DNA from: Alphaproteobacteria bacterium
Lineage (GTDB): Bacteria; Pseudomonadota; Alphaproteobacteria; Rs-D84
Direction of reading: 5' to 3'
Length of the DNA stretch: 64,000 nucleotides
Assembly: GCA_031555055.1 (NCBI GenBank)
Contig: JAVBUT010000004.1
Coordinates: 13,741-77,740, forward strand
The translations under genes were made by a program, and so were the position numbers. Positions 26,081 through 59,112 of the stretch are shown here, piece after piece (the stretch's first letter is position 1; each line of letters starts with the position of its first letter). The notes below the pieces were generated by a model, which searched no databases, was not told the DNA's origin, and worked only from the letters and a program-made list of their open reading frames with translations.

Positions 26081-26764
26081 TTGAACGACAAGGCTGTATC
26101 TTATGGCGCGGGTCATCGGGAAAGATTAAGGAAAAAATTCCTGGCCGGGAAACTGGCTGATTACGAGCTGGTCGAACTATTGCTGGCCTATGCTATTCCG
26201 CGATGCGATGTAAAGCCGATCGCACGCAGTCTGATGAATAAGTTCGGCGGAATCCACCATATTGTATCCGCCCCGATTGATGCGCTGACCGCAACTGTCG
26301 GGATCAAGGAAAACACCGCCGTTTTAATAAAACTGATTTATGAAATCATGATAATGTCGCATCGTGGCGGTATGGCTGATACGCCGATATTCCACGACTA
26401 TCAAAGATTGTCCGATTATTGCAAAACACTGCTGACCGGCAAAACAGTCGAAGAATTTCATGTCATATACTTGGGGGCTGATTACAAACTGTTGCGCGAT
26501 GATACGCACAGTGCGGGCACGATCGACTGGGCCGCGGTGTATCCGCGCGAAATACTGAAACGCGCGCTGGAATTAAATGCAAGATCGGTTGTGCTGATGC
26601 ATAATCATCCGGTATCAAACACTTCGTTTTCGACCCAGGATATTGAAATAACAAACACCATTAAAAAATTGATGGCGTCGGTTGAAATCGATTTGTTTGA
26701 TCATCTGTTGCTGTCGGCGAACGGGATCGTTCATTCCGCCAAGAATATGTTTTTGATAAAGTGA
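26081..26764 (+). CDS. radC: RadC/UPF0758 JAB-domain protein
   Basis: TTG start after GGGGGGA. N-terminal GHRERLRKKF and the JAMM motif LMHNHPVSNTSFSTQDIEIT. Confidence 0.88.
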   Translation: MNDKAVSYGAGHRERLRKKFLAGKLADYELVELLLAYAIPRCDVKPIARSLMNKFGGIHHIVSAPIDALTATVGIKENTAVLIKLIYEIMIMSHRGGMADTPIFHDYQRLSDYCKTLLTGKTVEEFHVIYLGADYKLLRDDTHSAGTIDWAAVYPREILKRALELNARSVVLMHNHPVSNTSFSTQDIEITNTIKKLMASVEIDLFDHLLLSANGIVHSAKNMFLIK

Positions 26765-26775
26765 ACTGAATCCGA

Positions 26776-26928
26776 TTATACGCGGTTTATTTTTCCGATT
26801 TGGGCCAGCATTATTTTTATTGCACACAGATCGTTTCTTATTTCAAATAATAGTTCGTGAAAAATTTTTATTTGTTCCGCACTGTTAAGCAACTTTGCGA
26901 TTTCATCAAGCGTGAATTGTTTTTGCAT
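26776..26928 (-). CDS. Candidate small protein (50 aa), below the track cutoff
   Basis: MQKQFTLDEIAKLLNSAEQIKIFHELLFEIRNDLCAIKIMLAQIGKINRV. The ATG is preceded by GGGGGAA at good spacing, and the ORF sits directly downstream of a structured leader. There is no homology evidence. Confidence 0.35.
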   Translation of the reverse strand: MQKQFTLDEIAKLLNSAEQIKIFHELLFEIRNDLCAIKIMLAQIGKINRV

Positions 26929-26944
26929 TTTATTCCCCCGGTTA

Positions 26945-27137
26945 AATCAAGACCGCCCTTTTGGCCCAATTTAGGAGAGAGAGTAAAAAGGGCGGTTGGA
27001 GGTTTCTAACTATGCTAGATAGTGCGCCTTATTTGTGCAAGCACTTATTCGGCAGCCCTCCAACCGAGGTTGGAGCTGTTTTACGCCGGGCCCGGCGCTA
27101 GCATGGGTTAGAACACCCAACAGCAATCTCTTGCTGC
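26945..27137 (-). ncRNA. Candidate structured RNA or 5' leader (about 190 nt)
   Basis: Minus-strand TTGGAA-18-TATAAT at 27173..27144. Several mutually consistent helices: ttctaac/gttagaa, atgctag/ctagcat, a cgccgg-gc-ccggcg hairpin, and ctccaac-cucg-guuggag. Ends in the hairpin 26952..26996 followed by a U-rich tract. Confidence 0.3.
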
Positions 27138-27188
27138 TCTAACATTATATCTTATATTTTTCGTATTTTCCAATAGATTATTAAAATA

Positions 27189-27842
27189 TTAAAACAAATC
27201 AGAGACGTTGCAGATCGTGCGCAACTGACGTGATGATATAGTTTGCAATTCGTCCCCGACCAGCTTGTATACGGTGCGTACCGCCGGCGTCGGCGTATCC
27301 CACGTTTCGGACCATTCGCGCGATATTTTCGTCACCTGGAAACTGGGGGCGAGCGTAAAGCGCAGTTTTTGCAATGCGCAATCCGCGCCTTCGACGGTTC
27401 TGAATCCAGCGGGCGTTATGTCAATAAATCCGGCCGATGTGTTCAGTTCGATCTTGTATTCGTCATAGTAATGGTCTGTTCCGTTTTCAATGTGGTCGCG
27501 TGTTATGCGGTCGCGCAGGCCGTCATTGTTGATGTCGATATTCCACATGTCGCGCGATGCGATTCCCGCCCCGAATTCGTCCAGCTTGTATTCTGTTGTT
27601 GATCCAGGATTTTTCAACCCGTCGTCAAATGGATAGTTCCCGGCGTCGTGCGGCTGTGCGCGGCGCGGCGCGGATGCTTGTTCTGTTTCGATATATGGCG
27701 TGGTCTGTGTGTCTGATTTCGGTGAACGGTTTGTCATAAATGTGTACGCCATAAATCCCAGTATTAAAAACACTATGACTATCAGCACGACCAACCATGT
27801 GCCGCGTGATTTTGTTGAAGATGTTGCAACGAATTCAGCCAT
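27189..27842 (-). CDS. Membrane-anchored protein with DxNxDGxxD calcium-binding-like loop, unknown function
   Basis: N-terminal TM helix WLVVLIVIVFLILGFMAYTF. DINNDGLRDRI resembles an FG-GAP or EF-hand-like loop. Third gene of a tightly packed three-gene operon. Confidence 0.6.
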   Translation of the reverse strand: MAEFVATSSTKSRGTWLVVLIVIVFLILGFMAYTFMTNRSPKSDTQTTPYIETEQASAPRRAQPHDAGNYPFDDGLKNPGSTTEYKLDEFGAGIASRDMWNIDINNDGLRDRITRDHIENGTDHYYDEYKIELNTSAGFIDITPAGFRTVEGADCALQKLRFTLAPSFQVTKISREWSETWDTPTPAVRTVYKLVGDELQTISSRQLRTICNVSDLF

Positions 27843-48117: not shown

Positions 48118-48310
48118 GCATCAGGTGACGCTTGATGTGGAGTTTCAAATCTCCGTATGACGTTGCTTAAAGTCAAGAGCATAAAAATGCGCACTCGATA
48201 GTGTTTATACACGGTCGGGTGGTGCAAAATAAGGCTTCGGCTGAATATGCACACTATTCGTCGTAATAGATTTGAACACCCGACCGCCCTTCGTCACGGC
48301 GGTATTTTTT
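48118..48310 (+). ncRNA. Candidate structured RNA or attenuator leader upstream of the HTH gene
   Basis: TAGATT-17-TATAAT (the -10 at 48106..48111). Local hairpin ggagtttcaaatctcc. Long-range pairing ggtcgggtg (48213..21) with cacccgacc (48277..85), abutting the terminator accgcc-cttcgtca-cggcggt plus T7 (48283..48310). Confidence 0.3.
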
Positions 48311-58753: not shown

Positions 58754-59112
58754 GTGAAATAAAAATATATTAAATAATTTCCTGTAATTTTTACATACGG
58801 TATTGCTTATGGATAATGTCAATTAACCTATTTTTGATTTTTGTGTTTGCAAAACTTTTCAATAATGTTATCCTGTGTTTGAATCCAAGGAGATGTGGGT
58901 TCGGGACCTTAGAAAAGTCCATGTTCAGGACAACACCTGTCGGTGTTGCGATCTCGTTTTTAGTGTTTAAGTACACACCCGACTTTGGTCGGGGCTCTGT
59001 TGGTTATACAACAGGGTTCGCCCAAAAGCCAACGGGGGCATCTGAACATGCTTTTTCTAAAACCCCGACCGCCAAATTCTTTGGCGGTTTTCTAGTTACA
59101 CGGAGTTTAGAG

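Follow-up and report, generated by a model that had tools for sequence, protein, structure and literature searches.

Phage c4, an antisense RNA, represses icd/ant in two ways: by acting on a2/b2 at the ribosome-binding site, and by Rho polarity. In P1/P7 immI, a promoter is followed by a hairpin, a second hairpin with a1 in its loop, the segment b1 and then a three-way junction that carries b' and a'. For IsrK of the Gifsy-1 prophage (RF01394), a single promoter yields two transcripts, one short and terminated, the other a long read-through mRNA on which the short one acts.

The sRNA-Xcc1 RNAs (RF02221) occur in Xanthomonas integron cassettes, Xylella islands and prophages and are multi-copy (PMC12189769). 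Canonical alphaproteobacterial members also have upstream a1/b1 segments, and canonical sRNA-Xcc1 is followed by downstream a2/b2, b2 falling on the next gene's Shine-Dalgarno, and has no terminator. A GGW processing site has been described for C4-type RNAs, in which RNase P makes the 5' end at the GG of P1 and leaves a mature RNA of ~77 nt, and group 1 of the C4-like sRNAs of Acinetobacter baumannii comprises 21 copies (PMC5320573).

The locus described here lies on the minus strand of the window, the whole 64,000-nt stretch of DNA that was analysed. It is one copy of a multi-copy leader RNA of Rs-D84/Candidatus Enterousia-like genomes that probably acts either as a two-state attenuator or as a self-masked sRNA precursor. 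Judged from its sequence and predicted structure, the family appears to be derived from, or built like, the c4/sRNA-Xcc1 antisense RNAs of phages and cassettes.

Layout of the leader

The elements of the locus are listed in Table 1. The promoter, the helices, the alternative pairing of X' and X and the ORF had all been proposed in the original prediction, and on a minus-strand reading each was present where it had been placed. Taken together, these sequence features support a predicted structured leader that runs from promoter to terminator. Transcription is predicted to start at ~27137 (minus), and the promoter position is identical across 13/13 copies of the closest group, type A.

Every copy of the family has a hairpin at the H1 position. 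The H2 stem varies among copies with its complementarity kept, as GAGG/CCUC, GGGAU/AUCCC and GAAG/CUUC (by eye, uncounted). Complementarity between the loop of H1 and the loop of the terminator has modest support in this genome (p ~0.002); by eye, it is seen in a subset of relatives only, and it is not relied on here. Two hairpins that had been described with 2-nt loops, CGCCGG-GC-CCGGCG and GUGC-UU-GCAC, are present, but each is one pair shorter and has a tetraloop.

Table 1. Positions of the leader elements, of the gene behind them and of two further family members in the window
Feature	Position	Strand	Remarks
Sigma-70-type promoter TTGGAA-18-TATAAT	27173..27144	minus	consensus scan 10/12
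H1 hairpin AGCAGCAA-GAGA-UUGCUGUU	27138..27119	minus	read from sequence
H2 hairpin GGGU/ACCC	27118..27105	minus	loop holds a1 = UUCUAAC, 27113..27107
b1 = AUGCUAG, single-stranded, directly 3' of H2	27104..27098	minus	complementary to P3 loop
H3, optional GC-rich hairpin CGCCG-GGCC-CGGCG	27097..27084	minus	read from sequence; some copies without H3
aX, anti-P1 strand CUCCAACC (CUCCAAC(C))	27075..27068	minus	pairs with X' to give hairpin H4
X' = GGUUGGAGG, P1 5' strand	27065..27057	minus	P1 covariation
P2 arm	27056..27024	minus	symmetric internal loop GAAUAA/AAAUAA conserved; distal hairpin; GUGC-UU-GCAC inside the arm
P3 hairpin ACUAU-CUAGC-AUAGU	27023..27009	minus	b' = CUAGCAU, 27018..27012 (loop and first arm bases)
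a' = GUUAGAA, J3/1 linker joining P3 to P1	27010..27004	minus	complementary to a1
X, the second CCUCCAACC, P1 3' strand	27002..26994	minus	P1 covariation
Terminator-like hairpin ACCGCCCUUUU...AAAAGGGCGGU	26996..26952	minus	11-bp stem, 23-nt CU-rich loop
Tail CUUGAUUU behind the terminator hairpin	26996..26944 (whole element)	minus	poor U tract
Shine-Dalgarno GGGGGA	26939..26934	minus	precedes 50-aa ORF
50-aa ORF	26928..26776	minus	no Pfam match
Member 2, type A	48118..48310	plus	R1 96 bits, RF02221 40 bits; upstream of 75-aa XRE HTH gene
Member 3, type B	58976..59092	plus	R1 28.8 bits, E = 0.003; same X'/X/terminator layout

Folding and covariation

The predicted fold of the leader was better than that of shuffled sequences (z = -3.2, with 1/200 shuffles equally good), and the centroid fold included the long-range helices UUCUAAC/GUUAGAA and AUGCUAG/CUAGCAU. 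These had been taken simply to close a multi-branch; they are instead the copy-specific antisense pairings a1:a' and b1:b'. The pairing of X' with X forms the closing stem (P1) of a three-way junction.

For X'/X, double changes were found at 4/9 pairs among 18 copies in this genome and at 7/9 pairs among 32 copies from 29 other genomes, where 99.6% of cells were paired, so the covariation proposed for this helix was borne out. The two P2 helices had double changes at 7/7 pairs across genomes, and P3 was paired in 99.2% of cells of the cross-genome alignment. Over all open-fold helices, 96.7% of cells were paired, compared with 77% for shuffled and ~40% for slid alignments, and double changes affected 21/23 pairs. 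The anti-P1 strand aX covaries in turn with the class of X': among 42 copies the cognate pairing scored -13.5 kcal/mol compared with -10.6 kcal/mol for a different class, and 0/20,000 permutations were as good. Both partners first proposed for X', the upstream X copy and the X that abuts the terminator, thus covary with it across genomes, and on these alignments the leader is an RNA with two mutually exclusive predicted folds, each of which covaries.

In the closed fold, a1:a', b1:b' and aX:X' would be paired, with the antisense loops masked, X free and the terminator complete. In the open fold, P1, P2 and P3 would form a c4-like junction with its loops exposed, and P1 would take three basal pairs of the terminator. 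For this copy, the partition function placed X' on aX at P = 0.75. For the family, the closed state is dominant in the predicted full-length ensemble: the pairing probability of X' is 0.81 for aX as partner but 0.06 for X, and aX outcompetes X for X' in 41/43 copies.

Blocking a1/b1 in silico moved X' from aX to X in 12/42 copies only, and in this copy no shift was seen. Occupying the address (a1/b1) alone therefore does not explain opening, and the proposal that its occupancy is sufficient to open the switch was dropped.

Relationship to Rfam families

At gathering thresholds, the Rfam scan of the window returned tRNAs only. At E <= 10, the region 26700-27300 gave noise only, and this copy had no RF02221 match. 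The scans contained no riboswitch family, in agreement with the original prediction, which recognised no known riboswitch core. The core is not new and unrecognisable: RF02221 aligns over its full length (1-87 of 87) with the X'...X domain in 7/12 sister copies at 27.7-41.2 bits, and the genome-wide search reached 43.7 bits, all of these alignments being below the gathering cut-off of 53 bits. The core alignment includes the AAUA.../GAAUA internal loop, and the P2 arm of sister copies aligns with P2 of sRNA-Xcc1. An Rfam relative, sRNA-Xcc1 at a score below threshold, explains the structure differently, which counts against the original prediction by its own criterion.

The other antisense models were less similar. 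For RF01695 (C4, cut-off 45 bits), the best match in the genome was 13 bits (E = 6), in unrelated places, with 0 matches on the 13 copies. RF03163 (c4-a1b1) likewise gave 0 matches at E <= 10 on the 13 copies, with phage P1 itself scoring 51 bits. The model built here scored 5 bits against P1 c4, which is not significant.

Self-complementarity between address and antisense loops

In each copy, the P3 loop (b') and J3/1 (a') are complementary to the copy's own upstream b1/a1, and both are hypervariable among copies. The cognate a1b1 x b'a' duplex was the best one in 13/13 type A copies (-15.5 compared with -6.2 kcal/mol), and 0/20,000 permutations of these 13 copies were as good. Among 30 copies from 29 other genomes, the cognate duplex was best in 25 (-13.9 compared with -8.0 kcal/mol).

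The same loops were compared with possible targets elsewhere. Over the 90 nt downstream, where a2/b2 would be expected in a c4-type system, cognate and non-cognate duplexes scored -7.4 and -7.6 kcal/mol respectively, and no cognate site was found. A genome-wide exact-hexamer search for a/b site pairs recovered essentially only the copies' own a1/b1, and with one mismatch permitted the trans-target search gave no discrimination.

Terminator and downstream genes

In this copy, X ends in ACC, and these 3 nt also begin the terminator stem. P1 and the terminator share 3-4 nt in 35/42 copies, even where the terminator sequences differ. For the sister copies, the terminator stem is 6 bp long, its loop 9 nt, and 6-8 U follow in a run. 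The terminator hairpin claimed for this copy is present, but its supposedly U-rich tract is poor, and the terminator scan did not call it (23-nt loop, poor U tract). With just 3 nt shared, the terminator may be weakened only a little.

The ORF of this copy starts 23 nt past the terminator and can therefore be reached by read-through only. In type A copies, start codons lie 12 to ~50 nt past the terminator stem and most are preceded by a Shine-Dalgarno; this short spacing leaves little or no room for another promoter. The terminator probably gates the small gene behind the leader. A leader peptide was not seen by eye; the AUG at the X' border belongs to the AU|GG context and has no preceding Shine-Dalgarno.

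The downstream proteins are heterogeneous and include XRE HTH proteins, lipoproteins, glycosyltransferases, small regulators and secreted proteins. Ten downstream ORFs were scanned, out of 13 sister copies altogether, and 6/10 had XRE-type HTH matches. The gene behind member 2 (75 aa) has HTH_19/HTH_3 matches, and member 3 lies upstream of a gene for a Cys-rich secreted protein. In the only RNA run found, one metatranscriptome from the source study, a 6-kb stretch was represented by 17% of its words; contigs, at a depth of 2-5 only, lay over map and the upstream operon and none over 26945-27143.

The main alternative is a stand-alone antisense sRNA of the c4/Xcc1 type, with a constitutive terminator, which would be matured and act in trans, the ORF being leaky or incidental. 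The canonical relatives have been described as sRNAs (PMC2996969, PMC5320573), all copies end in a hairpin and a U run, and the closed fold resembles a masked precursor. The context of P1 is also that of RNase P-processed c4: X' begins at AU|GG, as at the c4 RNase P site, and an RCC(A)-like tail follows the stem. The site-pair search of the genome nevertheless led back to the copies' own a1/b1, and the next gene is without a2/b2. In 43 copies, a gene with a Shine-Dalgarno stands directly behind the terminator, and a constitutive terminator would need neither an anti-P1 strand nor a conserved overlap with P1. We therefore regard a stand-alone sRNA as unlikely.

Family size and distribution

The original prediction had described an architecture of three members, which understates the family: this 888-kb genome has at least 20 copies, made up of 13 type A and at least seven more distant ones. 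The recurrence of the layout at 48213..48310 and 58987..59092 was confirmed, and R1, a covariance model built here, matches all three members (84.8, 96 and 28.8 bits). The family is present in 44/61 related genomes (order Rs-D84, Candidatus Enterousia-like), with 0-17 copies per genome at the level of the genus and up to 56 at that of the family (~1-Mb genomes). The element in the window is one ordinary copy, and it is the most divergent among the 13 type A copies. A literature search found no paper describing the two-state RNA family.

In a congener (G003), the ~420-nt module is missing between the same two genes, which there lie 6 nt apart. The element is therefore not a conserved regulator of a conserved gene. 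Conservation of X/X' pairing in orthologous regions accordingly fails at this site, where there is no module, but the pairing is kept in copies at other loci.

Another reading is a small mobile or addiction cassette, comparable to the sRNA-Xcc1-symE integron cassettes or to type I/III toxin-antitoxin systems; here the RNA would silence a harmful small protein and the module would spread or turn over as a unit. The module missing from the congener and the range of copy numbers both point in this direction, as does the position of sRNA-Xcc1 upstream of symE in Xanthomonas cassettes. The locus, however, showed no recombinase, no flanking repeats and no target duplication, integron attC-like ends were not seen on a brief inspection by eye, and nothing marks the heterogeneous downstream proteins as toxins. 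On balance, a cassette of this kind is decidedly improbable.

A metabolite or ion riboswitch, with the junction as aptamer and a ligand-stabilised P1 as antiterminator (ON, like pbuE), is very improbable. In its favour, the three-way junction closed by P1 is conserved, as is, to a high degree, the internal loop of P2 (RAAUAA/GAAUA), and the P1 3' strand overlaps the terminator. Against it, the family to which the core aligns is one of antisense RNAs. A ligand pocket would usually lie in J3/1 and the P3 loop, yet these vary strongly between copies and match an upstream segment by complementarity. The genes downstream encode small regulators and secreted proteins that are unrelated and share no metabolism, and a 1-Mb genome can hold as many as 56 copies.

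Proposed mechanism

For the two-state leader, the closed fold would be the default and would terminate transcription, leaving a self-masked pro-sRNA of ~190 nt. On opening, transcription would continue into the downstream gene; opening may also expose AU|GG to RNase P-type cleavage, which would release a c4-like RNA; RNase P RNA is encoded in the genome. A possible opener would be an RNA or protein bound to a1/b1 or to aX.

A more specific version would be an RNA-only, copy-addressed switch. The processed c4-like core, set free from a copy's terminated transcripts, would pair in trans with the nascent a1/b1 of the same copy and block self-masking, and P1 would then invade the terminator. The resulting positive feedback would be bistable, resembling phase variation, at each of 20-56 loci and would act over a surface protein or small regulator. 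We consider this version quite unlikely. Hfq was not found in this genome, and such a switch may therefore work without it.

If the two-state reading is true, a phage immunity device has been rebuilt as a general transcription-terminator leader, and an antisense RNA that originally locks a ribosome-binding site now locks itself. A single genome of this gut lineage, which is widespread, uncultured and genome-reduced, employs the leader dozens of times, before secreted or surface proteins and mini-regulators. The known RNAs would gain a two-state family of well-defined structure, with both states richly supported by covariation, the parts of which (promoter, ~190-nt RNA, terminator and reporter) are experimentally tractable.

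Comparison with known systems

The junction shares with sRNA-Xcc1 a 9-bp P1, a P2 with an A-rich internal loop, P3, J3/1 and an RCC tail. As in C4, b' is located in the P3 loop and a' in J3/1, both complementary to a1/b1 on the same transcript. As in the c4-a1b1 motif, there are two upstream hairpins, the second of which carries a1 in its loop and is followed directly by b1, and H1 corresponds to this motif's first hairpin in phage P1. The order of all these elements is the same as in P1/P7 immI. For P1 c4, a' is CUGUCAA and occupies the J3/1 position as here, and AU|GG at the 5' end of the P1 stem and an RCC tail are likewise present.

The differences lie in the stems, the targets and the context. 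Phage c4 has a 17-bp P1 stem and a plain UUCG hairpin as P2, whereas the family here is chromosomal, precedes genes for small regulators or secreted proteins and ends in a terminator. Compared with canonical sRNA-Xcc1, a2/b2 are missing here and their place is taken by a P1-overlapping intrinsic terminator and an anti-P1 strand. If the two-state reading is true, it also suggests that a1/b1 of the P1 and sRNA-Xcc1 loci, long unexplained, may mask the antisense RNA in cis within the precursor.

The group 1 RNAs of A. baumannii resemble the present family in having many chromosomal copies of a c4 fold with a variable specificity loop, and in having a 5' extension with a hairpin that is apparently removed at the GGW site. 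Unlike the copies here, they match Rfam C4 itself, and a self-complementary a1/b1, an anti-P1 strand or a coupling of terminator and gene has not been reported for them. The isrK model aligns with the a1b1 hairpins of phage P1 and a terminator-like hairpin in the Rfam scan of P1, and had 0 matches on the copies here. In the IsrK unit, no c4-like three-way junction follows.

Trp-type attenuators and the pbuE adenine ON riboswitch follow the same four-segment logic, with aX:X' as 1:2, X':X as 2:3 and X/terminator as 3:4. The conserved helices aX:X', X':X and the terminator, with its overlap of 3-4 nt, are mutually exclusive in the manner of an attenuator, and, as in the classical cases, the 3' strand of the antiterminator shares bases with the 5' arm of the terminator. 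Compared with these classical attenuators, the leader here has no leader peptide recognisable by eye, no recognised ligand pocket and an overlap of just 3-4 nt, and it carries in addition the copy-specific lock a1b1:a'b'.

Anatomy of the leader RNA

The structured leader RNA predicted originally at 26945–27137 was confirmed as a member of a real leader family, and each helix listed in that prediction was legible on the minus strand. Downstream of the promoter are approximately 190 nt without an ORF, with the features listed in the table. Shuffled sequences fold less well than the RNA (z = −3.2), whose centroid fold includes the long-range helices UUCUAAC/GUUAGAA and AUGCUAG/CUAGCAU. This copy had no Rfam match, either at the gathering thresholds or with E ≤ 10, and no Pfam match was found for its 50-aa ORF. 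The copy is atypical in having a terminator loop of 23 nt and a poor U tract. This loop (window 26963–26985) contains CUCUCUCUCC, a run with complementarity to the H1 GAGA loop and also, with G–U pairs included, to the Shine-Dalgarno of the 50-aa ORF.

Features of the leader copy at 26945–27137
Feature	Position	Strand	Remark
Promoter TTGGAA-18-TATAAT	27173..27144	minus	near-consensus
H1	27138..27119	minus	read in sequence
GGGU/ACCC hairpin, UUCUAAC in loop	27118..27105	minus	read in sequence
AUGCUAG	27104..27098	minus	read in sequence
GC-rich hairpin	27097..27084	minus	read in sequence
CUCCAACC	27075..27068	minus	faces GGUUGGAGG at 27065..27057
Long arm, GAAUAA/AAAUAA internal loop	27056..27024	minus	read in sequence
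ACUAU-CUAGC-AUAGU	27023..27009	minus	read in sequence
GUUAGAA	27010..27004	minus	read in sequence
Second CCUCCAACC	27002..26994	minus	read in sequence
11-bp hairpin	26996..26952	minus	read in sequence
GGGGGA Shine-Dalgarno and 50-aa ORF	23 nt after the 11-bp hairpin	minus	

A multicopy family

The whole 888-kb assembly was searched using nhmmer and our own covariance model R1, built from alignment A2. The ACCGCC...GGCGGU terminator with a C-rich strand ahead of it recurred many times, and both searches together detected 13 close (type A) copies, including the present RNA and that near 48213..48310, as well as more distant copies, including that near 58987..59092. Counting two extra RF02221 matches there are at least 20 copies in this genome; the three-member architecture first proposed therefore holds as to the kinship of its second and third members and fails as to the number of members.

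Type A copies are monocistronic, in the order promoter, RNA, terminator, small ORF and then a convergent housekeeping gene, and XRE-type HTH proteins made up 6 of the 10 downstream ORFs tested. The genes behind the distant copies are larger and code for a glycosyltransferase, a membrane protein and two further proteins, one Stealth-like and the other secreted and Cys-rich. H1 and the terminator have mutually complementary loops in approximately 6 of the 13 type A copies of this genome, such as window 48130–48140 with 48291–48297 (examples are GUGACG/CGUCAC, AUGAU/AUCAU and UGAUUA/UAAUCA), as also in a few relatives; H1 of most relatives carries a GNRUU pentaloop instead.

Copy-specific self-pairing

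Parts of the leader were lettered after their phage P1 counterparts: a1 for the H2 loop, b1 for the stretch following H2, b' for the P3 loop and a' for J3/1. Duplex energies were compared between H2 plus the next 30 nt of one copy and the region from the P3 loop to J3/1 of another. The cognate partner was best in 13/13 rows in this genome (−15.5 versus −6.2 kcal/mol, reached by 0 of 20,000 permutations) and in 25/30 (−13.9 versus −8.0 kcal/mol) when the single best copy per genome was taken from 29 other genomes, always with two helices of approximately 7 bp each. The a1:a' and b1:b' pairings are therefore conserved as a principle, with the sequence differing copy by copy, and the two long-range helices of the present copy, originally read as closing a multi-branch, are instead these pairings.

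No cognate site was found within 90 nt 3' of the terminator (−7.4 versus −7.6 kcal/mol), and an exact search for the a/b pairs elsewhere in the genome returned essentially only the own address of each copy. On contig C11 of genome G020 (L023:457-776), a c4-like core that lacks a 5' address module of its own is followed immediately by a complete unit sharing its a' (GUAGUUAA), and b' is similar in the two; the pair may form a tandem 'key plus lock'.

Two exclusive folds

Sequence comparison shows two conserved, mutually exclusive folds in the leader family, open and closed. The open fold comprises P1, P2, P3 and the terminator base. Among 32 copies from other genomes, in an alignment fitted to the model, 96.7% of cells were paired versus 77% in shuffled sequence and approximately 40% with the partners slid, with double changes in 21 of 23 pairs and P1 paired at 99.6%. 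Within this genome, P1 had double changes at 4 pairs and 0 broken pairs.

The closed fold has a1:a' and b1:b' and, in addition, the anti-P1 strand (aX), just 5' of the 5' strand of P1 (X'), which covaries with the class of X' (GGUUGGAG with CUCCAAC, GGCAGGAG with UCCUG and GGCUGGAG with CUCCAGCC); cognate aX:X' duplexes reached −13.5 kcal/mol versus −10.6 kcal/mol for a different class, and no permutation was as good. By partition function of the full-length terminated RNA, the pairing probability of X' is 0.81 with aX and 0.06 with X (the P1 3' strand); aX beats X in 41/43 copies (0.75 versus 0.00 in the present copy). On this calculation the closed fold is the ground state, with the antisense loops masked and X left for the terminator. 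The 3' strand of P1 overlaps the terminator 5' arm by 3–4 nt in 35/42 copies, terminator sequence differences notwithstanding.

Proposed switch

From this anatomy we infer the operation of a switch, by a mechanism that is plausible. The classical 1:2 / 2:3 / 3:4 attenuator geometry is formed by aX, X', X and the 3' arm of the terminator; a second lock, a1b1:a'b', would keep the junction open-ended. In the default state, the closed fold would stop transcription, yielding a self-masked RNA of ~190 nt. If the 5' module or aX were occupied or removed, P1 would form, taking half of the 6–7-bp terminator stem and exposing a'/b'. The opened RNA would resemble an RNase P substrate (AU|GG, P1 stem and RCC tail); processing of C4-type RNA has been described (PMC5320573).

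The genome encodes RNase P RNA type A (C6:113050-113341) and Rho (C6:14098-14322), and no Hfq domain was found by whole-genome search of the assembly, which is 77% complete by marker genes. Type A start codons lie 12 to ~50 nt past the terminator, with a Shine-Dalgarno ahead in most, and the downstream gene would be accessible by read-through only. An in silico block of a1/b1 opened 12/42 copies; the present copy stayed closed. One RNA run was found, with the leader outside its coverage.

Distribution and turnover

R1 matches were present in 44/61 genomes and 23/29 genera of the same order, and Map protein neighbours assign the lineage to the Candidatus Enterousia / Rs-D84 MAGs of gut and rumen (placement context in PMC12306168). 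A 1.1-Mb genome of the same taxonomic family (G006) had 56 R1 matches, and two of the four congeners had 0. The number of copies is highly unstable.

At the orthologous site of one congener (G003, L049:827-2179), radC and a 221-aa homologue of the 217-aa gene form a convergent pair separated by 6 nt, and the ~420-nt promoter-RNA-ORF module (window 26764–27189) is missing. The module is thus a presence/absence polymorphism, gained or lost as a unit. R1 had no match on the orthologous stretches of three congeners (G001–G003), and no recombinase or flanking repeats were found at the module.

Comparison with known RNAs

In the annotated phage P1 record, the promoter is followed by two hairpins, the second of which carries a1 in its loop; b1 comes immediately 3' of that hairpin, c4 is next, and a2 and b2 follow at the ribosome-binding site of icd. 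The phage c4 folds as a three-way junction whose P3 loop holds b' and whose J3/1 linker holds a'; its P1 stem has AU|GG at the 5' end, and its tail is CCACC. The leader unit keeps the identical part order as far as the junction end. The C4 (RF01695) and c4-a1b1 models had no match in an Rfam scan of sister copies, and homology to phage P1 c4 was not demonstrable at sequence level, R1 giving 5 bits; the likeness to the P1/P7 c4 plus a1b1 system is one of common architecture. Between a1/b1 and c4, phage P1 (L013:12250-12314) has a terminator-like hairpin, AACCGCAG...GCGGUAUUUUU, which resembles the leader-family terminators and is aligned by Rfam as the isrK 3' end.

When 12 sister copies were scanned against Rfam by E-value, the X'...X domain and first terminator bases of 7 aligned to sRNA-Xcc1 (RF02221, positions 1–87 of 87), at 27.7–41.2 bits (≤43.7 bits in the genome search), all below the 53-bit cut-off, which amounts to sub-threshold membership. 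Other Alphaproteobacteria hold canonical sRNA-Xcc1 copies that score above the Rfam cut-off (L063, L078, L084 and L090 in G116; L065, L080 and L086 in G074); these are preceded by a1/b1 and followed by a2/b2, b2 falling on the Shine-Dalgarno of the next ORF, and they carry an RCCA tail after P1. These features suggest that sRNA-Xcc1 is itself a c4-type system, bridging c4 and the Rs-D84 leader family, and it looks like a c4-type lock on the adjacent gene. The literature found on sRNA-Xcc1 gives its targets as unknown.

No published description of the Rs-D84 leader family was found in a literature search. The closest known RNAs are sRNA-Xcc1, the P1/P7 c4 plus a1b1 system, the 21 chromosomal C4-like sRNAs of A. 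baumannii (PMC5320573) and IsrK. Compared with these, the leader family has lost a2/b2, fused the terminator to P1 and added an anti-P1 strand, and it serves genes for small regulators and for secreted proteins as their leader.
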